Shown: positions 1 through 63,314, counted from the stretch's first letter. The stretch: DNA of 64,000 nucleotides from an uncultured Acidobacteriota bacterium (GCA_963783255.1 CAWAMP010000022.1:566761-630760); one strand, 5' to 3'. Translations and numbers: made by a program. The notes: generated by a model not told the origin, from the letters alone.

Positions 1-39
1 ATCTCGCGATCGTGGGATCCGTCGCACGCCGCCGGTTTC

Positions 40-127
40 GCAAGGTCCCACGTTCGCACGATCCCTGGTTCGCACGATCCGTGGTTCGCACGATCTCCAG
101 TTCGCAAGATCGCAAGATCGCAAGATA
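40..127 (+). repeat. 8-nt-period tandem array, locus A (11 phased octamers ending 13 nt before the symporter ATG)
   Basis: Read in one phase: GCAAGGTC CCACGTTC GCACGATC CCTGGTTC GCACGATC CGTGGTTC GCACGATC TCCAGTTC GCAAGATC GCAAGATC GCAAGATA. A weaker same-phase signal continues back to nt 1 at the window edge. Period 8 cannot be coding, although ORF 12..1634 runs through it. Confidence 0.85.
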
Positions 128-7703: not shown

Positions 7704-8561
7704 ATGAAGGTACTGGTGATCGGCGGAACGGGCACGGTCGGTTCGACGGTGGTGAGCCAGTTGACGGCCGGCGGGCACGAGCCGCGCGTGATGACGCGAT
7801 TGGCGGAGAAGGCCGCCCGCGTGCCGCCTGGCACGGCGCACGTGGTCGCAGATCTCGAACAGCCGGCTTCCCTTCCGGCGGCGTTCGCGGGCGTCGGCGG
7901 CGTGTTCCTGATCGCCGCGGTCGGCCCGACCGAAACCGAACAGGGCCTCGCCGGAGTCGCAGCCGCAAAGGCCGCGGGCCTCCAGCGCATCGTCTACGTG
8001 TCGGTGGCCATGCCGCCGGGTTCCGAGGTGATCCCGCACTTCGCGTCGAAGATCCCGGTCGAACAAGCCGTCCAGGCGTCGGGAATCCCGTGGACCATCC
8101 TCAGACCGAACAACTTCTTCCAGAACGACCTGTGGCTGCGCGACGCGATCACGGTCCACGGCGTCTACCCCCAGCCGCTGGGCCCGCGCGGCGTCAACCG
8201 CGTGGATGTGCGCGATGTCGCCGAGGCGGCTGCCAACGCCTTCACGCGCGGCGTCGGCGGCATCGTGCCGCTCAACGGCCCGCGGGGCCTGACCGGCGAC
8301 GACACCGCGCGCGTCTACTCCGAGCACCTGAAGCGCCCGGTGCGCTACGGCGGCGACGACCTCGACGCGTGGGAGCGGCAGGCCGCGATCATGTTCCCGC
8401 CACGGATGGTACAGGACCTCCGGATCATGTACGACTACTTCATCAGGAACGGGATGCATGCCAGCGGAACGGACTTCGCCGCTCAGGAACGCCTGCTCGG
8501 CCGGGGCCCGCGGCCTTTCGAGGCGTTTGCTGCAGAACTCACGGACAGTTGGAAGAAGTAG
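7704..8561 (+). CDS. NmrA-family NAD(P)-binding protein
   Basis: It has an MKVLVIGGTGTVGS Rossmann motif at the internal ATG of ORF 7296..8561 and NmrA-like length (285 aa). Confidence 0.8.
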   Translation: MKVLVIGGTGTVGSTVVSQLTAGGHEPRVMTRLAEKAARVPPGTAHVVADLEQPASLPAAFAGVGGVFLIAAVGPTETEQGLAGVAAAKAAGLQRIVYVSVAMPPGSEVIPHFASKIPVEQAVQASGIPWTILRPNNFFQNDLWLRDAITVHGVYPQPLGPRGVNRVDVRDVAEAAANAFTRGVGGIVPLNGPRGLTGDDTARVYSEHLKRPVRYGGDDLDAWERQAAIMFPPRMVQDLRIMYDYFIRNGMHASGTDFAAQERLLGRGPRPFEAFAAELTDSWKK

Positions 8562-8562
8562 G

Positions 8563-8675
8563 GATCTTGCGACGTTGCGATCTTGCGAACTGGTTATCCC
8601 GCGAGCTGGGATCTCACGGAATGGAGGCTGGCCGAAGTCCTTCGCAAGATCTCGACTTCGCACGATCGCAAGGTG
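8563..8675. repeat. 8-nt-period array, locus B, arranged as two inverted arms between convergent genes
   Basis: Arm 1 is GATCTTGC GACGTTGC GATCTTGC GAACTGGT (8563-8594). Arm 2 is AGTCCTTC GCAAGATC TCGACTTC GCACGATC GCAAGGTG (8636-8675). GATCTTGCGA at 8563-8572 is the exact reverse complement of 8642-8651. Confidence 0.85.
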
Positions 8676-8690
8676 CCCGCTGGTGGCACC

Positions 8691-10556
8691 CTACGTCTTC
8701 CCCATCCAGTGCAGAATACCGAGCGACATCCACTCCGAGTAGGTGATCAGCAGCACGCCGATCGCGAGGATGATCAGGAACGGGATCACGTAGCGATACA
8801 GCTTCGGCAGCGACGTGTTGAACCGCGACGACGACAGGAACAGGTTCAACCCGACCGGCGGGAACAGGAACCCCAGTTCCAGGTTCGACAGGAAGATCAC
8901 GCCGAGGTGAATCGGGTTGATGCCGTAGGCCGCCCCGAGCGGCACGACCAGCGGCGCCAGGATGACGATGGCCGCGTAGATCTCCACCACGCTGCCCACG
9001 ACCAGCAGGAAGACGTTCAGCGCGAGCAGGAACATCGCGGGCGACTGGATGTGCGCCTGGACCCACGCGAGAATCTGGACCGGAATCTGCGCGTCGACCA
9101 GATAGTTCGTGAACCCCATCGCGATGCTCAGCAGCATCAGCACGGCGCCCATCAGGCCCGCCGCCTTCAGCAGCACGCCCGGCAGCGTCCTGAACACGTG
9201 CAGGTCGCGGGTGATGAAACACTCGACGGCGACCGCGTATGCGAGCGCCGCCGCCGCCGTCTCCATCATCGTGAGCCAGCCCGAGGCGAACAGCCCCATC
9301 ACCACGAACGGGAGGCCGAGTTCCCACTTGGCCCGCCAGGTCGAAACGGCCAGTTCCTTCCAGGAGAACGCCTGCCGCTCCCGGCTGACGCGCCGGCCGA
9401 TGAAGATGCCGTAACCCGCCGTGAGGACGACGAGCAGCAGCCCCGGCAGCAGTCCGGCGATGTAGAGCTGATCGAGCGGGACGATCTGGTCGCGTGAGCT
9501 GGCGACGACCGAGTAGAGCACGACGGGGAGGCTCGGCGGGAACAGCAGGCCGAGCGAGCCGGAGGCCGTCACCAGCCCCAGCGAGAACCCTTCCGAGTAG
9601 CCGTCCTTGCGCAGCATCGGATACACGAGCCCGCCGAGCGCGATGATGGTCACGCCCGACCCGCCCGTGAACGTCGTGAACAGCGCGCACACGGCCGCCA
9701 CCATGACGGCGAGGCCGCCGGGCATCCACCCGAACAGCGAACGGAAGAACCGCACCAGCCGCTCCGCCGCCGCGCTCTCGGCGAGCACGTAGCCTGCCGC
9801 CGTCAGCAGCGGGATGGCGGGAAGCGTCGGTGAACCGATCAGGTCGTAGACCTTGCGCGTCACCGCCGACACCGGCGTGCCTTCCGAGAAGAACAGGACC
9901 GCGGCGATCCCGCCCATCGCGATGAACACCGGCGCGCCCAGCAGCGCCGCCGCCAGGACCACGAGCGCCAGCGGCCAGAGGTAACCGACCGCATCGGCGG
10001 GCAGCAGCCCGGTCGCGAACGCCGCCGGGATCGCGAGAAACGCGACCGAGCGCCCCCACCACCGGTCGGACGCCTTGTACGCGAACGCCAGTGCCATCAG
10101 CGCGAGCGCGATCGGCATCACGGCTTCCGATGCCCACTGCGGGATGCCGATCGGCAGCATCTTCGGCTCGGACGCTGCGCGATGCATCCGGACGATGTCG
10201 AACGCGCCCTTGCCGAGGACGGCGATGACCGCCGCCGACACCGAGAAGCCGAACAGCCGCGAGAGGCGGCGCGCGAGTCCCTCGCCGAAGAACTCCGCGG
10301 TCGAGAGCGTCAGGTGCTTGCCCTGGATCGCCGCCGCGAGACCGCCGACGAAGGCCAGCCACAAGGTGAGCTGCTTGACGTACTCGTCCTTGCCCGGCAC
10401 ATGGAATCCGCCGAACGGCCTCCCGACCGCGTCGACGAGCAGGAGGATGGTCGTCAGGGCGAGCGTCGCCGTCAGGATGGTCTGCTCGGCTCCCTTGAGC
10501 GCCCGGGCCAACACGCCCGGGCGGCTGCCGGAGGATTCCCGTGTCGTCTCGATCAT
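8691..10556 (-). CDS. TRAP transporter fused small+large permease (DctQ-DctM type)
   Basis: A 621-aa polytopic protein with an N-terminal DctQ-like four-helix part followed by a DctM-like body. It ends LITYSEWMSLGILHWMGKT. The solute-binding gene is immediately upstream. Confidence 0.9.
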   Translation of the reverse strand: MIETTRESSGSRPGVLARALKGAEQTILTATLALTTILLLVDAVGRPFGGFHVPGKDEYVKQLTLWLAFVGGLAAAIQGKHLTLSTAEFFGEGLARRLSRLFGFSVSAAVIAVLGKGAFDIVRMHRAASEPKMLPIGIPQWASEAVMPIALALMALAFAYKASDRWWGRSVAFLAIPAAFATGLLPADAVGYLWPLALVVLAAALLGAPVFIAMGGIAAVLFFSEGTPVSAVTRKVYDLIGSPTLPAIPLLTAAGYVLAESAAAERLVRFFRSLFGWMPGGLAVMVAAVCALFTTFTGGSGVTIIALGGLVYPMLRKDGYSEGFSLGLVTASGSLGLLFPPSLPVVLYSVVASSRDQIVPLDQLYIAGLLPGLLLVVLTAGYGIFIGRRVSRERQAFSWKELAVSTWRAKWELGLPFVVMGLFASGWLTMMETAAAALAYAVAVECFITRDLHVFRTLPGVLLKAAGLMGAVLMLLSIAMGFTNYLVDAQIPVQILAWVQAHIQSPAMFLLALNVFLLVVGSVVEIYAAIVILAPLVVPLGAAYGINPIHLGVIFLSNLELGFLFPPVGLNLFLSSSRFNTSLPKLYRYVIPFLIILAIGVLLITYSEWMSLGILHWMGKT

Positions 10557-10569
10557 CGCAGTGGCTCGC

Positions 10570-11626
10570 CTACTTCTTCGGCAACGCAGCCTGCTTCTTC
10601 CGGAACTCGTCGCGCGCCTTCATCGCCTCGTCGAACGCATCGGCGGGCACGAAGTCGCCGCGGACCTTTCCGTACGCGGTCTCGGCGGTCTTCCGCCACA
10701 GCTCCTTCGTCCTGGCATCGACCGGCACGACGGTCAGCCCGGCGGTCTTCATCGCGGCCACGTCCTTCTCGCCGCTCTGCCGGATGTCGGCCTGGAGCTT
10801 CGCGCCCGCCTCCTGCATCGCCTTGAGCAGGGCGGGCTTGATGTCGGCGGGGATCTGCGCCCACGTTTCCTTCTTGATGACCGTCCCGCCGAGCAGCAGC
10901 GCCCAGTTGAGGTCGGTCATGAACTTCGCCCTCTCGTAGTAGCGCCCGATCTGCGCCACCTGCGGCGACATCGAGCACGCCTCGAAGAGGCCGGTCGAGA
11001 GACCCATCGGGAGGTCGGCGAGGGCGGCGGGACGAGGGTTGAAGCCCGCCGTCTTCCAGAATCTCGAGCGACTTCGGGTCGCCCGCCCACTGGAACAGCT
11101 TGAGCTTTCTGAGGTCGTCCGGCGTCGCGACGGGCCTGGTCGTGAAGAAGTGGAGCCAGCCGGCGTCGGCCCAGTTCAGCATCAGGAAGCCCTTGGCGTC
11201 GATGGCCGTCTCGAGCCGCGACCTCAGCCGGTCGAGGACGAAGTAGGCCTCCTCGTAGGAGTCGTACGCCATCGGGATGCTCACCGCGTAGACCGACTTC
11301 TCGACCTCCGCGATCCCGACCGAGGTGAGCACGGCCCCCTGCAGTTCGCCGAGCCGCATCGCCGCCACGACCTCCGGCTCGTCACCCTTCGTGCCGCCAC
11401 CATAGAGAATCACCCTCACCCTGCCGTTCGAGAGCTTGCTCCACCTGTCGGCCACTTCCTTCAGCACGAGGAACCAGGACGAGTTGGTGGGCACCGAGGT
11501 GGCCATCTTGATCGTGATTGTCTGGGCGGACGCCGCCGAGGGGAGGGTAAGCGTGCCAACCAGGATCCCGGCCGCAACGACCCACGGGGTCCACCGGGGC
11601 CGTCGAACGTTCATTCTGGGGTTCAT
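10570..11626 (-). pseudogene. TRAP transporter solute-binding subunit (DctP/TatP type), split by a +1 frame error
   Basis: The N-terminal 190 aa lie in ORF 10553..11626 (signal peptide, ITIKMATSVP, GELQGAVLTS). The C-terminus lies in ORF 10570..11007. Deleting one A at 11054-11055 (minus sense GGAAGA) gives SLEILETAGFNPRPAALADLPMGLSTG, and 1056 nt gives 351 aa. Confidence 0.8.
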
Positions 11627-15337: not shown

Positions 15338-15480
15338 CGAGAAGTCCCCCCACACGTGTCTCGCGCCTGCGAACAATCGCATGACGCGGCACGTTGTGCG
15401 TACTATACGACGCTCTGAACCACGGAGCCTCTGTGGTCCCTGTGTGCTCCACGGCTGGCCTTCGGTTACCATGGGCGCCT

Positions 15481-19459: not shown

Positions 19460-19508
19460 TCCGCTGCCGGCCATCCGCTGACAGCTAACAGCTGACCGCT
19501 GCCAGCCG
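19446..19508. repeat. weak 7-nt-period tract (NNNGCTG units) spanning two convergent stop codons
   Basis: Units read TCAGCGG ACCGTGA TCCGCTG CCGGCCA TCCGCTG ACAGCTA ACAGCTG ACCGCTG CCAGCCG. The hairpin CAGCGGA-CCGTGA-TCCGCTG (19447-19466) carries the hydrolase TGA in its loop. Confidence 0.4.
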
Positions 19509-20687
19509 TTCCCCGACCGCCCGTTCGATCCGCTCGAGCGCCTCCGTGAGCGTCGCGCGCGGGCACCCCAGGTTGATCCGCTCGAACCCGGCCGCCTCCT
19601 CGCCGAACCACGGCCCGCTGTCGAAGTAGACCCGCGCGGTCCTCAGGAAGAAGTCGTCCAGCGCCTTCTGCGGCATCCCAAGCCTGCGGCAGTCGATCAG
19701 CGCCAGATACGTGCCCTGCGGCCGGATGAGGCGAAGCGCCGGGATTCGCTCCCGGATGAATCGGTCGGTGAAGTCGACGTTCGCCGCGACGTACTCGAGG
19801 AGCTGGTCGAGCCACTCGTCGCCGCTCCGGTACGCCTCCTCCAGCGCGACCGTTCCGAACAGGTTGGCAATCTCGAGGCCTGCGGCGTCGAACTGCCTGT
19901 CGTAGCGCGCGAGCAGTTCGGGATTGCCGGCCACGATCAACGACATCGACAGGCCTGCCAGATTGAACGTCTTGCTCGGCGAGACGCACGTCACGGTGCG
20001 CTCGGCCAGTGCCGGCGACACCGCCGCCAGCGGCACGTGCGTGTGGCCGGGCAGCGTGAGGTCCATGTGGATCTCGTCCGACACGACGACGAGGTTCCGA
20101 CGGACGCACACCTCTCCCAGCGCCTCCAGTTCCTCACGCGTCCACACGCGCCCCACCGGGTTGTGCGGGCTGCACAAGATCAGCATGCGCGTCCGCTCGT
20201 CGATCTTCCGTTCGAGATCGGCGAGGTCCATCCGGTAGGTGTCGCCGTCGGCGGCGAGCGGGTTCCTGACCAGCCGGCGCCCGTTCTTCTCGACGGCGCG
20301 GAAGAACGGGTAGTACACCGGGGTCTGAACGACGATGCCGTCACCGGGCTCGGTGAAGGCGTTCACGCAGAGGCTGAGCGCAGGGACGACGCCCGGCGCG
20401 CGGTGGAGCCAGCGCCGGTCCACGGCCCACTTATGACGCCGCCGCAGCCAGGCGATGGCCGATTCCCAGAACGACTCGGGCACCGACACGTAGCCGTACG
20501 CGCCGTGAGCGGCCCGCCGCTCCACGGCCTCAACGACGGTCGGCGGCGCCGCGAAGTCCATGTCCGCCACCCACATCGGGATCACGTCGTCGAGGCCGTA
20601 CGCGTCCCTGCATCGATCCCACTTCAGCGAATGGGTGTGGCGGCGATCGAGCACAGTGTCGAAGTCGTGGCGCATCCCCGCGATCAT
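19485..20687 (-). CDS. MalY/PatB-type PLP-dependent C-S lyase (class I/II aminotransferase fold)
   Basis: A 400-aa protein whose N-terminus FDTVLDRRHTHSLKWD is typical of PatB/MalY. Its ATG overlaps the upstream stop (ATGA). Confidence 0.85.
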   Translation of the reverse strand: MIAGMRHDFDTVLDRRHTHSLKWDRCRDAYGLDDVIPMWVADMDFAAPPTVVEAVERRAAHGAYGYVSVPESFWESAIAWLRRRHKWAVDRRWLHRAPGVVPALSLCVNAFTEPGDGIVVQTPVYYPFFRAVEKNGRRLVRNPLAADGDTYRMDLADLERKIDERTRMLILCSPHNPVGRVWTREELEALGEVCVRRNLVVVSDEIHMDLTLPGHTHVPLAAVSPALAERTVTCVSPSKTFNLAGLSMSLIVAGNPELLARYDRQFDAAGLEIANLFGTVALEEAYRSGDEWLDQLLEYVAANVDFTDRFIRERIPALRLIRPQGTYLALIDCRRLGMPQKALDDFFLRTARVYFDSGPWFGEEAAGFERINLGCPRATLTEALERIERAVGERLAAVSC

Positions 20688-27761: not shown

Positions 27762-27847
27762 TGCCGGGGGTGGGGATCGAACCCACACGACCCTTGCGAG
27801 TCCCAGGATTTTAAGTCCTGTGCGTCTGCCAGTTCCGCCACCCCGGC
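27762..27847 (-). tRNA. tRNA-Leu (anticodon UAA)
   Basis: Cloverleaf read by eye. The acceptor is GCCGGGG/CCCCGGC. The anticodon stem is CAGGA/TCCTG with loop CTTAAAA. It has a long variable arm and T-loop GGTTCGATCC. Length is 86 nt, and CCA is not encoded. Confidence 0.9.
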
Positions 27848-32517: not shown

Positions 32518-32607
32518 AACTGGGAATGTAGAATTGAGAAGGGAGCCTCCCTACTGCTCAGTTCCTGATTCCCAGTTCCCAATACTCAATACTCAATCTT
32601 CCAATTC
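32510..32607. repeat. 7-nt-period array, locus G (14 phased heptamers, dyad centred on GGGAG-C-CTCCC)
   Basis: Units read AAATGTA GAACTGG GAATGTA GAATTGA GAAGGGA GCCTCCC TACTGCT CAGTTCC TGATTCC CAGTTCC CAATACT CAATACT CAATCTT CCAATTC. They fill the spacer between convergent stops at 32517 and 32609. Confidence 0.8.
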
Positions 32608-32608
32608 C

Positions 32609-35866: not shown

Positions 35867-37284
35867 GACTCGCCTCCCCGCTCGCCGCGCTGGCCTCGCT
35901 GCCCGCCGCCCTCGGCGCCGGCACCGGGCCGGCCGCCGCCCGGCTGCCCGCCGCCTTGCGAGCCGCCCTGCCGTCCGCCCGGGCCGCGGCGGCCTCCGCC
36001 TTCCTCGCCCGTGCCAACCTGCACGCTCATGCCGGTCGCCAGCTCGTTGAGCCGGTTGTTCGCCAGCGTTTCGTCGCCCTTCAGCCCCTCCACGATCTCC
36101 CACAGGGGACCCTGACGAACGCCGAGCGTCACCTGCTGCTGCGTGATCCGGCCGTTCCTGATGACGTAGACCGACGAGACGCCGGCCAGGGTGGATACGG
36201 CGGTGTCGGGAACGGCCAGCACGCCTTCATCCTTGTTCGTGAGGATCACACCCTTGGCGAAGAACCCGGGCTTCAGCCGGCGGTCGGTGTTGTCCACCAG
36301 CGCCTCGACCGCAAACGTCCGCATCGTCTGATCCAGCGACGGACTCACGTAGGCCACCTTGCCGTGGAACAGCGTGTCGCCGTACGACTCCACACGAAAC
36401 TCGACCGGCTGCCCGGGCTGGATGAGGCCGGCGTGCTTCTCCTGCGCCCCCGTGCGCAGCTTCAACGGATTCACCTGGACGATGGTCGCGACCACGGTGC
36501 GCTCGCTGATGTACTCGCCAACCTGGACGGGACGTTCCGACACGATGCCGGAGATGGGAGCCCGCACCGTGGCGTCGTTGAGCTTCTTCACCGCCAGATC
36601 GTAGGACGCCCGGCGGTCCTGCAGCAACGCCTTCTGGCCGCGCATGGTGTCGGTGGCCGACTGGTGGGCGGCTTCGGCCACCTTCAGCCTCGTGTCGGCG
36701 GCCTGCAGGTCGGAGGGCGATACGATGCCCTTCCCGGCCAGCGTATGGATCCGGTCCGCGGTGGCTTTGGCGTCGAGGTAGGTCGCGTATGCGTTCTTGA
36801 CCGACGCGACCTCGTCGTCCGGCGGCGGGTTGTCGCCTTCTTCGAGCGGCCCATGCATTCCGAGCTGGGCCCGCGTCTGGCGCAGTGCGCTTTCCGCTCG
36901 GGCCAGCGCGAGCTGCAATTCCCTCGGCTCGAGCCTCACGAGCGGGGTGCCGACCTTCACCTCGGCGCCAATCTCGACCATCACGGCGCGCACCACGCCG
37001 GCCGCCTCGGCGCTCACCTTCGCCTGGTCGGGCGACAACAGCGTGCCGGCCAGGTCGACCATGCGCTGGACGCTCATCCGCTGAACCGTCGTGGAGCGGA
37101 CGCTCACCGCCGGGCCTCCCCGGCCGCCGCGAGCGCCGCCGCCGGCTCGGGCCCCAGAGGCCGCGCCGCCGCCCGAAGCCGGCGCGCCAGGCGCGGAACC
37201 GCCGCAGGCGGAAAGAACCACCGCCAGAAGTCCAGCCAGGACCGCCAGGCGCAAGGACACAGGTCGTTCGATGATCTGGGCCAT
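35863..37284 (-). CDS. RND periplasmic adaptor (membrane fusion protein) with Gly/Arg-rich termini
   Basis: The ATG at 37284 gives a lipoprotein-like N-terminus (LLAVVLSACGG). It has hairpin, lipoyl and beta-barrel regions (GTPLVRLEPRELQLALARAESAL). The C-terminal 50 aa are Gly/Arg/Gln rich. Confidence 0.85.
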
Positions 37285-37487
37285 GAGAAGGAATCCGAAA
37301 TCAAAACACAGCAGGAGCCGGGCACACCACAGACGTCGGAGTCTACTACGACAGGTGGCTGGCACTCGCTTACCCGGACCCGTTCGAGGCCCGCGGACTC
37401 CGGGCCGGACTTTTCTCTGGTGCGTGTAAGCAACGGGATGGAGTGCGCCGTATATCGCTGGTGGACCTAGAGCAACCCACCTCCCTT

Positions 37488-37518
37488 GGGGCCCCTTGCG
37501 AAAAGGGGCCCCCTTTTT
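37488..37518 (+). terminator. orphan Rho-independent terminator-like hairpin in a divergent spacer
   Basis: GGGGCCCCTT-GCGAA-AAGGGGCCCC (perfect 10-bp stem) is followed by C and TTTTT. It lies 85 nt upstream of the DUF2339 ATG. No plus-strand gene lies upstream. Confidence 0.6.
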
Positions 37519-37602
37519 CACCCTTTGCAGTAACATCCGCCGGACGATCATTCAAGTCTGGGCAGAACCGACCCGGGGTGCTCCCGGGGGAGGACCGAAG
37601 CC

Positions 37603-42333: not shown

Positions 42334-42552
42334 CTAGCGGGCGCGGAAGGTGATGATCCCTCGCACGAGGTCGTAGGGAGAGACGCTGACGGTCACGCGG
42401 TCGCCGGTGACGACCTTGATGCGGAACCGGCGCATCCGGCCGCTCAGCTGGGCGAGAACCTCGTGCCCGGCGTCGGCCTGGACGCGGTAGAGCCCGCCGC
42501 CGTGGATGGAAGTGACCGTGCCCTGGATGTCGAGAAGATCCTCTTTGCTCAA
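42334..42552 (-). CDS. infA: translation initiation factor IF-1
   Basis: The TTG start at 42552 gives a 72-aa product, (M)SKEDLLDIQGTVTSIHGGGLYRVQADAGHEVLAQLSGRMRRFRIKVVTGDRVTVSVSPYDLVRGIITFRAR. This is canonical IF-1 length and sequence. Confidence 0.9.
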   Translation of the reverse strand: MSKEDLLDIQGTVTSIHGGGLYRVQADAGHEVLAQLSGRMRRFRIKVVTGDRVTVSVSPYDLVRGIITFRAR

Positions 42553-42596
42553 AGTGCGATGCCCTTCGTAGCAGTGGCCAGAATCGGAAGAAGTTC

Positions 42597-42699
42597 GATC
42601 TTGCGGTCTTGCGATCTTGCGAAGTACGCATGGGCTGCTGGACGCCCCCGACCGCGCGATTGCACGTCGCACGATCGCACAATCGTACTTCGCAAGATG
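42597..42699. repeat. 8-nt-period array, locus C, two inverted arms in the infA leader / 3' region of the RRM gene
   Basis: Arm 1 is GATCTTGC GGTCTTGC GATCTTGC GAAGTACG (42597-42628). Arm 2 is GCACGTC GCACGATC GCACAATC GTACTTC GCAAGATG (42662-42699). ATCTTGCGAAGTACG at 42614-42628 is the exact reverse complement of 42684-42698. Confidence 0.85.
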
Positions 42700-42709
42700 C
42701 GACTACGAA

Positions 42710-43021
42710 CTACCAGCGCGGCTCGCGCCGCCGGTTGCCGCCACCGCCGCCGCCGAAACCGCCCGAGCGCTCTGGGCGCGGCTTCGCCTCGTTGACCGTC
42801 AGGCTGCGGCCGCCGAGATCGCGGCCGTGCATCTGCGCGATGGCGTTCTGCGCGTCCGCCTCGGACGCCATCTCGACGAACGCAAAGCCGCGCGCCCTGC
42901 CCGTCGCCATGTCGCGGACGACGTTCACCGATGCCACCTGTCCCGCCGTGCCGAAGAGGTCCTGCAGGTCCTGCTCGGTCGTGTTGAACGGGATGTTGCC
43001 AACGTAGAGTCTCATGCCCAT
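42710..43021 (-). CDS. RRM-type RNA-binding protein with C-terminal Gly/Arg tail
   Basis: RNP motifs are LYVGNIPF (RNP2) and RGFAFVEM (RNP1). The tail is SGGFGGGGGGNRRR. GAGGAG lies 10 nt before the ATG at 43021. Confidence 0.9.
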   Translation of the reverse strand: MGMRLYVGNIPFNTTEQDLQDLFGTAGQVASVNVVRDMATGRARGFAFVEMASEADAQNAIAQMHGRDLGGRSLTVNEAKPRPERSGGFGGGGGGNRRREPRW

Positions 43022-43323
43022 ATCCGTCTGGCTCCTCTGATCCCAGCGCCTGCGACCGCCGCACCGTGGCGCCACGCGGTTGGTGAAGTCGAGGGGTCCC
43101 CCTCGATGCAGCTGTTAGCCGGTGAAAACGTCGCAAGAGAGAGGAGCGAGTCCGGACGACTCGTTTCAGCTCGTGTCGCGGGCTTTCGAGGATAGGCTAC
43201 GGAAACAGTATAGCACGGGCGGGCCTGGCGTCCGGCCCCGGCATTCGGTCCTTGATCTCCGGCCGGGAACGGCGTAGTGTCGTATGGAGCCCCGGCTCCG
43301 AAACCCAGCCTGTCGAGGTACCC

Positions 43324-46309: not shown

Positions 46310-46349
46310 AATCTTGCGATCGTGCGAAGTGGCGAACTGGCGAACTGGC
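46310..46349 (-). repeat. 8-nt-period array, locus D (5 phased octamers)
   Basis: The plus strand reads AATCTTGC GATCGTGC GAAGTGGC GAACTGGC GAACTGGC. This is the same unit vocabulary as locus E. It lies 50 nt upstream of the FHA-GGDEF start. Confidence 0.85.
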
Positions 46350-46354
46350 GGCCG

Positions 46355-46418
46355 GCGACTGGCGGCTTGCGGCGGTGTCACGGGCGACAGCGTGACCCGG
46401 CCGCAAGCCGCCAGTCGC
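46355..46418 (-). terminator. long GC hairpin after the M28 peptidase gene
   Basis: GCGACTGGCGGCTTGCGGC (46355-46373) is the exact reverse complement of 46400-46418, a 19-bp stem. The 26-nt loop contains a further GTCACG/CGTGAC pair. It starts 7 nt after the stop at 46425. There is no U-tract. Confidence 0.75.
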
Positions 46419-53223: not shown

Positions 53224-53305
53224 GTCCGCAGTCATCCGTTCTGAGTTCGGAGTTCGGAGTTCTGAGTTCTGAGTTGTGAGTGGTGAGTGGTGAGGCGAGA
53301 GGAAC
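53222..53305 (+). repeat. 7-nt-period array, locus F (12 phased heptamers filling the whole spacer from stop to start codon)
   Basis: Units read GAGTCCG CAGTCAT CCGTTCT GAGTTCG GAGTTCG GAGTTCT GAGTTCT GAGTTGT GAGTGGT GAGTGGT GAGGCGA GAGGAAC, then AC-ATG (53308). Confidence 0.9.
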
Positions 53306-58133: not shown

Positions 58134-58157
58134 GAACGGGCTCCTTCTCACAAGGAT

Positions 58158-58241
58158 GGCTCCTGGCTCTTGGCTCTCGGCTCCCGGCTCTCGGCAGAGA
58201 GCCAGACGCGGCCTGAGGCCGAAGGTCGAGAGCCCAGAGCC
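58158..58241. repeat. 7-nt-period array, locus H (12 phased heptamers with inverted arms)
   Basis: Units read GGCTCCT GGCTCTT GGCTCTC GGCTCCC GGCTCTC GGCAGAG AGCCAGA CGCGGCC TGAGGCC GAAGGTC GAGAGCC CAGAGCC. There is a perfect hairpin, GGCTCTC-GGCA-GAGAGCC (58186-58203). Confidence 0.85.
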
Positions 58242-58245
58242 GGTA

Positions 58246-61715: not shown

Positions 61716-61789
<74 letters not shown>

Positions 61790-61871: not shown

Positions 61872-61946
61872 TGGAGCGGGAAACGGGATTCGAACCCGCG
61901 ACTTCGACCTTGGCAAGGTCGCACTCTACCACTGAGTTATTCCCGC
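61872..61946 (-). tRNA. tRNA-Gly (anticodon GCC)
   Basis: The acceptor is GCGGGAA/TTCCCGC. The anticodon stem is CGACC/GGTCG with loop TTGCCAA. The T-loop is GGTTCGAATCC. Length is 75 nt including an encoded CCA. Confidence 0.9.
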
Positions 61947-61982: not shown

Positions 61983-62513
61983 CTAGGCAAGAGCGGGTGC
62001 CGCCGCGCCGAGGTCCGTCGGCCGAAACACCTGAATCCCCTCCACACGCTCGAAATCGCGATCGGCCGTCGCAATCGCACTCACCCCCGCATCGCGCATC
62101 GTCGCCACGATGATCGAGTCGTTCGTGAGAAGTCCCGTCTCGGCGCGAACGTCGGCAGCACCCATGAACAGTCTCACGTCGAGCGGAAGCACATCGATTC
62201 CCACGAGGGGAATCCGCTGGAGATACTCCCGATACTCTGTCAATTGCCGCACAACATCGGGCCGACTGCGCAGTTTCCTGCCGACTCCACCGGGCGGCAT
62301 CAGACCCTTCGAGAGAGCCTCGAACGCCATCAGACGATGACAAACCTCGGCCATGACGACCGTCGAGGTGACGCCGGTGATGGCGTGCTCCTCGCATCGG
62401 CGCAGCAGTGCTCGACACTCCGCGGATGAAGCAGAGAACACGTACAGAAGAACCGGGGAGTCGAGAAAGACCGTGGTCCCCGGCGGCAGGGCGTCAAGAC
62501 TCGAGCCAGTCAT
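61983..62513 (-). CDS. PIN-domain ribonuclease toxin (VapC-like)
   Basis: A 176-aa protein with acidic residues in PIN spacing (VFLDSPVLLY, MAEVCHRL, LTNDSIIVATM, TADRDFERV). It overlaps the upstream small gene by 20 nt. Confidence 0.8.
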   Translation of the reverse strand: MTGSSLDALPPGTTVFLDSPVLLYVFSASSAECRALLRRCEEHAITGVTSTVVMAEVCHRLMAFEALSKGLMPPGGVGRKLRSRPDVVRQLTEYREYLQRIPLVGIDVLPLDVRLFMGAADVRAETGLLTNDSIIVATMRDAGVSAIATADRDFERVEGIQVFRPTDLGAAAPALA

Positions 62514-62739
62514 CTTCGTCTTCCATGATCTCGCGCACCACCTCTGGCGGGAGCCGGAACACTCCCCAACTCGCGTCGACCAGGCTGGCCTTTGGAGCCG
62601 CATCCTGGGCCGGGCCGGCAAAGTAGCGCCTCAAGGCGTCCTCGAGAATCGCCGCCATCGGCCGCCCTTGGCGGGCGGCCTCGAGCTTCGCCCGGTGAAA
62701 CAGCGACGCGTCCATGACCGTACTCACCTTCTTCCTCAT
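62494..62739 (-). CDS. putative antitoxin of the PIN toxin
   Basis: An 81-aa protein, MRKKVSTVMDASLFHRAKLEAARQGRPMAAILEDALRRYF (ribbon-helix-helix-like), with an acidic tail. It sits upstream of and overlapping the PIN gene. Confidence 0.55.
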   Translation of the reverse strand: MRKKVSTVMDASLFHRAKLEAARQGRPMAAILEDALRRYFAGPAQDAAPKASLVDASWGVFRLPPEVVREIMEDEDDWLES

Positions 62740-62745
62740 TTCATA

Positions 62746-62777
62746 ATGATACCATGATTTCATGATATCATCATGAT
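62746..62777 (-). promoter_or_regulatory. AT-rich putative operator/promoter of the toxin-antitoxin pair
   Basis: This is the only AT-rich patch in the window. ATGAT occurs four times, starting at 62746, 62754, 62762 and 62773. The palindrome ATGATATCAT spans 62762-62771. It lies 7 nt upstream of the antitoxin ATG. Confidence 0.4.
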
Positions 62778-62782
62778 GTCGC

Positions 62783-63160: not shown

Positions 63161-63206
63161 ATGCCCGGATCAACGTGCAAGGACGGGGCCGGGGGGAGAA
63201 TCCAGC

Positions 63207-63286
63207 GATCTTGCGATCTTGCGATCTTGCGATCTTGCGATCTGGCGAACTGGCGAACTGGCGAACTGGCAATCGTGCGAAGTTGC
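63207..63286 (-). repeat. 8-nt-period array, locus E (10 phased octamers, best copy)
   Basis: The plus strand reads GATCTTGC x4, GATCTGGC, GAACTGGC x3, AATCGTGC, GAAGTTGC with no phase slip. It lies 47 nt upstream of the yraN start and 29 nt downstream of the ribF stop. Confidence 0.95.
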
Positions 63287-63314
63287 GAACCGGGAGGGAG
63301 CGGTCCGTCGACGG

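Follow-up and report, generated by a model that had tools for sequence, protein, structure and literature searches.

Locus B, a pair of inverted octamer arms lying in the 129-nt spacer (8562-8690) between an NmrA-like gene on the plus strand and a DctQM permease gene on the minus strand, is in our reading one member of a family of extragenic short-tandem-repeat palindromes that is dispersed and evolves fast, REP-like in kind and growing by slippage. The probability of this reading is put at roughly 0.6. The element, which is dispensable, does not qualify as a canonical intrinsic terminator. The stretch of DNA analyzed as a whole (64 kb, here called the window) has a GC content of 68%, and the host genome is that of a Vicinamibacterales-like soil member of the Acidobacteriota. 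The closest relatives of the DctQM permease come from Acidobacteriota MAGs (92% for L001, 84-87% for the others), one of which is labelled Vicinamibacterales. The product of the NmrA-like gene is 100% identical to a database protein of 285 aa, from whose length the start coordinate 7704 was inferred.

The anatomy of the locus is given in Table 1. Arm 1 begins 1 nt past the TAG stop codon of the NmrA-like gene (8559-8561), the intervening base being G, and the rest of the spacer 3' of arm 2 is CCCGCTGGTGGCACC, the DctQM stop codon being TAG as well (cta, 8691-8693, minus strand). Read on the minus strand, arm 2 is CACCTTGC GATCGTGC GAAGTCGA GATCTTGC GAAGGACT and has a 16-nt periodicity (spacing of direct repeat D2, 16). 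The TRF analysis reports period 8 at the locus, that is, head-to-tail tandem units of the 7-9-nt class. The initial annotation, which had described octamer arms inverted between convergent genes, was borne out: all its coordinates and complements were correct when checked in the sequence, including the placing of arm 1 just past the NmrA-like stop and of the end of arm 2 near the stop of the TRAP permease. The core GATCTTGCGA occurs exactly at 8563 and 8579 on the plus strand and at 8642-8651 on the minus strand, so the 10-bp complement (8563-8572 with 8642-8651) and the 11-bp complement (8579-8589 with 8641-8651) pointed out earlier are both real. The two arms pair because one core unit is common to both; the unit itself, taken as 8 or 16 nt, has no self-complementarity. 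The octamers have 50% GC, compared with 68% for the genome. The last codons and stops of the convergent genes, 8551-8563 (GGAAGAAGTAGGG) and 8689-8701 (CCCTACGTCTTCC), are 92% complementary, and the palindrome thereby reaches into both coding regions.

Table 1. Coordinates of locus B, its flanking genes, sister copies and related features (window positions unless a contig is named)
Feature	Position	Strand	Evidence or remark
NmrA-like NAD(P)-binding protein gene, 285 aa	7704..8561	+	Pfam NmrA/NAD_binding_10, NmrA E=2.6e-25
Arm 1, four octamers GATCTTGC GACGTTGC GATCTTGC GAACTGGT	8563-8594	+	sequence, direct repeat D1, TRF, motif matches
Unique central region, 41 nt	8595..8635	.	centers of other copies unrelated
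Arm 2, five inverted units AGTCCTTC GCAAGATC TCGACTTC GCACGATC GCAAGGTG	8636-8675	-	sequence, direct repeat D2, motif matches
Main interrupted stem, 23-24 pairs, 4 mismatches	8563-8589 with 8641-8667	.	inverted repeat I2 85%, MFE folds
Small hairpin GGTGCC-N7-GGCACC, 7-8 pairs	8670..8692	.	MFE folds; abuts/overlaps DctQM stop codon
Fused DctQ-DctM TRAP transporter permease gene	8691..10556	-	Pfam DctM E=7e-72, DctQ E=2e-15
Sister copy, ~7 units, 16-nt period	1..127	-	ends 13 nt before ATG of SSF transporter gene
Sister two-armed copy	42596..42703	.	motif matches; folds z -3.1 and -4.4
Sister single-arm copy AATCTTGC GATCGTGC GAAGTGGC GAACTGGC GAACTGGC	46310..46350	+	TRF, motif matches
Longest array, 10.5 units: GCGATCTT x4, GCGAACTG x3, others	63205..63288	+	TRF, motif counts
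tRNA genes, three	27762-27847, 61719-61789, 61875-61946	all -	Rfam
Arrays running into gene 3' ends	L089 ~850-910; L146 ~430-470; L086; L121/L142		gene calls on metagenome contigs
Arrays in other MAGs	L038:6650-6840, 8630-8850; L044:6540-6690; L039:11815-11950, 15373-15473; L012:11804-11935		spacers

Folding of both strands against shuffled controls, which the initial annotation had proposed as a check, gave structures better than the shuffles, with z from -3.4 to -4.9. For 8555-8695, the predicted RNA fold has -60.3 kcal/mol on the plus strand (z -3.7) and -62.7 kcal/mol on the minus strand (z -4.9), and on either strand none of 200 dinucleotide shuffles was as good. A tighter segment of the locus gave z -3.6 and -3.4 as RNA, and a fold with DNA parameters gave z -3.9. 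On both strands the main stem is the dominant register; 51 nt lie inside it, and 22-24 of its pairs are expected in the ensemble. According to the inverted-repeat search the arms can pair in three registers, spanning 27 nt (85%), 18 nt (89%) and 33 nt (76%), and forcing the two alternatives costs 5-10 kcal/mol. Thus, the earlier statement that the arms can pair in several registers holds in so far as three registers exist, but the alternatives are unpopulated at equilibrium, and register slipping is, by these predictions, a possibility and not the ground state. The GGTGCC...GGCACC hairpin noted at 8672-8690 is seen in the MFE fold of both strands; in alignment A1 it is not retained as a hairpin in L080 or L001. 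The central region adds a mini-hairpin of 10 pairs on the minus-strand RNA (8596-8605 with 8613-8622).

Comparison of the same spacer in relatives, another check put forward in the initial annotation, showed that the array ranges from 4+9 units down to a spacer of 3 nt. Two long contigs run collinear with the window, L081 and L080, the latter at about 89% nucleotide identity. In the alignment of the NmrA-DctQM spacer (A1), the window has 4+5 units, L080 has 4+9, L001 one and L081 none. In L080, arm 1 has four units, and arm 2 has grown to four 16-mers (ACTTCGCAAGATCGAT) and one further unit. The spacer of L001 is 27 nt long, with GATCGCAAGATC as its sole unit, that of L081 is reduced to 3 nt (TAG-AGG-CTA), and L005-L007 have tiny spacers between the same genes, with the array absent. 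Since relatives have spacers of 3 nt (L081) or 27 nt (L001), the array is dispensable for this gene pair, and the NmrA and DctQM gene ends are ancestral because they are found in L081 without it. Judged from the alignment, the array evolves fast and resizes in place at the orthologous spacer. No compensatory changes between the stems of the window and L080 were found by eye on alignment A1, and the mismatches are lineage-specific. Some of these results count against our reading: the element is missing in L081 and L005-L007 and nearly so in L001, the fold of the L080 orthologue does not beat its shuffles (z -0.9 and -1.4), and the longest member of the family has no hairpin.

The L080 contig carries the GATCTTGC family at two sites orthologous to the window; in the roughly 21 kb examined per contig, L081 has no unit of the family and L001 has one. 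Upstream of the SSF gene, L080 has a two-armed element (2160-2310, z -5.7), and comparison with it indicates that the copy at the window's first positions probably represents one arm, the second, of an equally two-armed element that the window edge truncates. At the same site, L081 and L001 have a different unit, of the GCTGGCA type, and in alignment A2 the boundary of conservation backs the position of the SSF ATG. The DctM genes of L080 (11001-12872) and L081 (10862-11961) were called as fragments, which are probably frameshift errors of long-read MAG assemblies, and small indels in the spacers of these two contigs therefore need cautious reading.

Within the window, GATCTTGC occurs 12 times against 1.9 expected, and none of 100 shuffles reaches 12. 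Eleven of the 12 occurrences in these 64 kb fall within five arrays, all in spacers, and only one unit is isolated; the arms often show a 16-nt period of the form GATCTTGC+GAAnTnnn. The two-armed sister copy lies 6 nt past the stop of an RRM_1 protein gene (42710-43075, minus strand) and 44 nt upstream of the start of an ORF (~42334-42552, minus strand) that the gene caller missed and that, from its sequence, we take to be infA-like (IF-1). The single-arm copy at 46310-46350 adjoins a separate perfect hairpin of 19 pairs (46356-46416), to which its z of -6.0 is wholly due. For the longest array, 63205-63288, an inverted arm is absent and no structure is predicted (z +0.25).

Other arrays of the window are built from other units, namely GCTGACA at 19477, a CAATACT type at 32518-32608, GTTCTGA at 53238 and TGGCTCT at 58157. 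The CAATACT-type array (z -4.1) and the TGGCTCT array (58152-58245, z -4.8) have inverted arms, and the GTTCTGA array (53224-53294) also beats its shuffles (z -2.95). Several unit families therefore coexist in one genome, as the CAATACT-type, GTTCTGA and TGGCTCT arrays stand beside those of GATCTTGC. With genes called by a simple GC3 rule, under which stop codons are exact and start codons approximate, arrays were present in 8 of 23 spacers holding a gene 3' end and in none of 9 divergent spacers (p=0.047). The GCTGACA-type array (19460-19510) crosses the TAG of the window gene 19485-20687 (minus strand). A Pfam scan of 14 array-flanking genes returned ordinary, functionally unrelated proteins. 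No match to the curated RNA families of Rfam 15 was found at E<=1 in 8300-8900, and a scan of the whole window at the gathering score yielded the three tRNAs and nothing else. An AT-rich ATGATATC-type repeat (TTCATAATGATACCATGATTTCATGATATCATCATGATG) lies in the 43-nt spacer 62740-62782 between a small gene (62494-62739, minus strand) and a UPF0102 gene, and it may be an operator.

The family extends beyond this genome. A metagenome scan for the 20-mer GATCTTGCGATCTTGCGATC returned 92 stretches; 56 of these belong to contigs with a GC content of 62-72% and share the layout, and a scan of viral contigs gave 0 matches. The BLAST comparison of the metagenome loci with the window returned no orthologous loci, so these copies sit at other sites. 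The counts that follow come from a set defined by GC content and layout, in which a few loci are duplicates of one site and start codons are approximate. Fifteen of the copies are two-armed. The arm order (GATCTTGC)n...(GCAAGATC)n outnumbers its reverse by 15:1 (p=5e-4). Arrays oriented as GATCTTGC begin within 43 nt past a stop codon, on the sense strand, in 24 of 56 cases; about 4 by count follow a stop in antisense orientation, and 12 lie within 60 nt of a start codon. Usually a copy, single arms included, begins shortly after a stop codon, at a distance of 0-20 nt. Among 36 array contexts, 15 are convergent, 14 co-directional and 7 divergent, and convergent spacers are over-represented relative to the window background of 7/32 (p=0.006, or p=0.013 when likely duplicates are removed). 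Two-armed copies lie between convergent genes in 9 of 9 cases, compared with 6 of 27 single-arm copies (p=5e-5).

The centers of different copies are mutually unrelated. In 16 two-armed copies, 51 unit variants are common to both arms and 203 occur in one arm only, a count made with a crude choice of register in the script, and it suggests that each arm evolves on its own. The origin of the arms by inverted duplication, considered because a GA(C/A)GT variant is mirrored in both, was downgraded on the same count. Some metagenome arrays overlap the stop codon (L086, L089/L146, and L121/L142; for example, L089 reads ..AAT CTT ACG ATC TAG), and because they run into gene 3' ends, both the stop codon and the final residues are encoded by repeat units. 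Other Acidobacteriota MAGs contain heptamer or octamer arrays, often with inverted arms in spacers, of quite different units; in L009, (GCGGTCG)5 abuts (CCGACCG)n between convergent genes (10751-10843). These MAGs were fetched by a DctQM query and are labelled Acidobacteria, Acidobacteriota or Thermoanaerobaculaceae, and from their sequences such arrays look like a phylum-wide habit of Acidobacteriota.

Under the reading as a dispersed family of slippage-grown palindromes, the arms would lengthen and shorten independently by replication slippage, as the copy-number differences and the independence of the arms suggest and in line with the explanation proposed for the bacterial heptamer excess. 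The family would be spread or kept by some process under which the sequence of the unit and the order of the arms are conserved. Both convergent transcripts would carry the element as an interrupted stem of 23-24 pairs with its foot 1-2 nt from the NmrA stop, and the main stem and the small hairpin together would extend to the DctQM stop. By analogy with REP and BIME, the most likely effect of such a structure at the 3' end would be to block 3'-to-5' exonucleases and to slow or partly stop read-through RNA polymerase in both directions. A role as RNA 3'-end hairpin, whether exonuclease barrier, pause site or weak terminator, is plausible on that analogy.

The array may also be a neutral or selfish by-product of mutation, in which slippage-prone repeats of 7-8 nt gather in tolerant spacers, convergent ones best, and the hairpin has no function. 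We consider this unlikely, though several observations agree with it: gain, loss and resizing at orthologous sites are rapid, many different units are used across loci and MAGs, arrays enter gene 3' ends and supply stop codons, single-arm copies exist without structure, and the flanking genes are functionally unrelated. Copies just upstream of starts, with 7 of 36 contexts divergent, are accommodated by a neutral or selfish repeat as well as by a functional one. Polymerase slippage has been proposed for the excess of heptamers in bacteria, as cited in PMC4692102. Against it, the same unit in the same arm order (15:1) is present at many loci and in many environmental contigs, isolated single units are uncommon (1/12 in the window), and independent local slippage should yield arbitrary units and orders. 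Local slippage alone does not explain the recurrence of the GATCTTGC unit and its arm order at many loci, and this recurrence therefore implies some process of dispersal or recognition.

The locus was first annotated as a bidirectional terminator. The part of this claim that stands is a tandem-unit hairpin set flush between convergent stops; what speaks against the function is that the element has no T-run or terminator-like site and is dispensable in relatives. A dedicated bidirectional intrinsic terminator, whose hairpin efficiently ends both convergent transcripts and whose shifted registers give robustness, is in our estimate improbable. Its position, a fold that beats shuffles on both strands, the 9/9 two-armed metagenome copies between convergent genes and the scarcity of canonical terminators in the window would all agree with it. 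But the intrinsic-terminator scan of 8300-8950 found 0 terminator-like sites and no T-run on either strand; the flanks read GCAAGG... and CCCUACUUCUUCC, with no U-tract directly 3' of the stem. The main stem, with its 51-nt interior and 4 mismatches, is not a compact GC-rich stem, and only the 8672-8690 hairpin is compact. One register dominates while the others cost 5-10 kcal/mol, and relatives manage with spacers of 3-27 nt. The sister copies lie 13 nt (SSF) and 44 nt (infA-like) before starts and thus leave no room for a promoter downstream, so that transcription must traverse them or begin inside. The poor fold of the L080 orthologue and the unstructured longest copy weigh against an efficient intrinsic terminator as well. 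A sigma-70 promoter scan found nothing at locus B itself. By comparison with described elements, the geometry of the stem, which is long, interrupted and relatively AT-rich for the genome, is typical of REP-like elements rather than of intrinsic terminators.

In 60 kb, 18 canonical terminators were found against about 22 expected, and since they are not enriched, hairpins lacking a U-tail, or Rho, would end most transcripts. The sole convincing canonical terminator in these 60 kb is at 37488-37512 on the plus strand (GGGGCCCCTT-GCGAA-AAGGGGCCCC followed by CTTTTTC). It lies within a divergent spacer of 342 nt (37261-37602) with no Rfam match, and it may end an unannotated small RNA.

As improbable as the dedicated terminator is a more specific proposal, in which (GATCTTGC)n...(GCAAGATC)n serves the Vicinamibacterales-like Acidobacteriota as a sequence-specific cis element of constrained polarity, with a trans-acting factor of its own to read it. 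That factor could be an enzyme that mobilizes the elements, or a protein binding RNA or DNA to mark gene boundaries. If this were true, the conserved unit, the arm order of 15:1 and the position flush behind stops would reflect recognition rather than a shared history of slippage, and a new REP/RAYT-like system made of tandem octamers, not of single palindromes, would be at hand.

It is quite improbable that locus B is a non-autonomous mobile element (REP/REPIN or MITE type) that an enzyme recognizing the octamer hairpin copies in trans to new spacers. Such an element would account for a multi-copy extragenic family of conserved unit and polarity that occurs in many genomes and for inverted arms resembling REPIN doublets. 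Yet no target-site duplications are visible, there is no conserved internal sequence, the centers being unrelated, and the aligned orthologous spacers point to a change of size in place, not to an insertion; the unit of 8 nt is not palindromic, unlike REPs, and viral contigs hold 0 copies. Least probable is a DNA-level array of protein-binding sites (clustered GATC methylation, SeqA-like, or a nucleoid protein) with an incidental hairpin, for although a conserved core of 10-11 nt, GATCTTGCGA(A), recurs every 8 or 16 bp and many units contain GATC, variants without GATC are frequent (GAACTTGC, GAACTGGC, GAAGTnnn), other arrays of the same genome use unrelated units, and the 8/16-bp spacing is out of helical phase.

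Other candidates were discarded. CRISPR, phase-variation contingency loci and G-quadruplex repeats were ruled out by period, position and composition; the units have no G-quadruplex potential because they lack G-runs. A link between TAG stops and arrays (TAG at 5/5 adjacent stops) was rejected, as TAG already makes up 50% of window stops. Among the 48 GC3-called genes of the window, 24 end in TAG, 22 in TGA and 2 in TAA, a TAG share unusually high for a bacterium.

The Acidobacteriota are among the most abundant soil bacteria, and their non-coding genome is almost undescribed. A density of about nine arrays per 64 kb would amount to hundreds per genome if it holds throughout. The arrays lie against gene ends, differ in length from one close relative to the next and in some cases overwrite stop codons. 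In practice, short-read assemblies will break at them and annotated gene ends will be shifted, and they could serve as strain markers. Together with the Xanthomonas heptamers they make two independent cases in which to ask why repeats of 7-8 nt accumulate near stop codons, and they raise the question of whether such hairpins replace canonical terminators in a genome with few of them. Only the conserved arm order is left unexplained by slippage, and it can be tested directly.

Known bidirectional intrinsic terminators, seen in Escherichia coli by 3'-end profiling, have a compact GC-rich stem between an A-tract and a U-tract. Locus B shares with them one palindromic hairpin common to two convergent genes, and it differs in having neither A- nor U-tract and in its 51-nt interior. 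The REP, BIME and REPIN elements of gamma-proteobacteria are abundant extragenic elements at gene 3' ends, often in inverted pairs with long hairpins; REP/BIME protect upstream mRNA from 3' exonucleases and can attenuate transcription, and a REP near a stop codon affects translation. The family of locus B is likewise abundant, extragenic and often arranged as inverted pairs at gene 3' ends. However, a REP is a single imperfect palindrome of 20-40 nt whose 5' tip is conserved and GTAG-like and for which a cognate RAYT transposase exists, whereas the arms of locus B are tandem non-palindromic units of 8 nt with no such 20-40-nt palindrome, and we know of no RAYT for an octamer family of this type. 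Unlike a MITE, the family has no conserved internal sequence and no visible target-site duplications.

Among short tandem repeats, the STRR heptamers of heterocystous cyanobacteria, which Mazel and co-workers reportedly described in 1990, are tandem repeats with units of 7 nt. They are scattered over intergenic regions, one genome carries several unit families, and they have no known function. The locus B family resembles them as dispersed intergenic short tandem repeats of several unit families; in contrast to it, the cyanobacterial STRRs are mostly direct arrays, with few inverted pairs in Nostoc, and their unit length and sequence differ. Heptanucleotides of Calothrix are cited in passages of the Xanthomonas study (PMC4692102). 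The TAACTGA heptamers of marine Beggiatoaceae form 169 intergenic sets at a fixed position relative to gene boundaries; nearly all are direct and lie just upstream of starts, with one inverted case, and a role in translation has been proposed (MacGregor 2015; PMC4679880). The family of locus B is of the same broad kind, that is, short intergenic tandem repeats tied to gene boundaries.

In the collection searched, literature searches for the GATCTTGC-type repeat sequence found no paper, and those for repeat elements of Acidobacteria or Vicinamibacter found nothing specific. Of the described cases, the GGGAATC heptamers of Xanthomonas campestris and X. axonopodis come closest; they form tandem arrays at about 180 loci, and 89-93% of the loci are intergenic (Rehm et al. 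2015, PLoS One 10:e0144275; PMC4692102). These arrays usually lie 0-50 nt from a stop codon or overlap it, and 70-75 facing pairs of arrays are inverted repeats able to form a stem-loop. At the same site, length and sequence differ widely among close species, and a role in termination was considered, not established (PMC4692102). Hence, the unusual design that the initial annotation saw in stems of tandem units is only partly so: the tandem-unit stem is real, but it recurs in the lineage, and paired inverted heptamer arrays have been described in Xanthomonas (PMC4692102). Like the GGGAATC family, that of locus B is tandem, intergenic, near stops, with some inverted pairs and variable between relatives. 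It differs in its unit, an octamer or 16-mer, in its phylum, the Acidobacteriota, in its strongly conserved arm order, and in the several unrelated unit families that share one genome.
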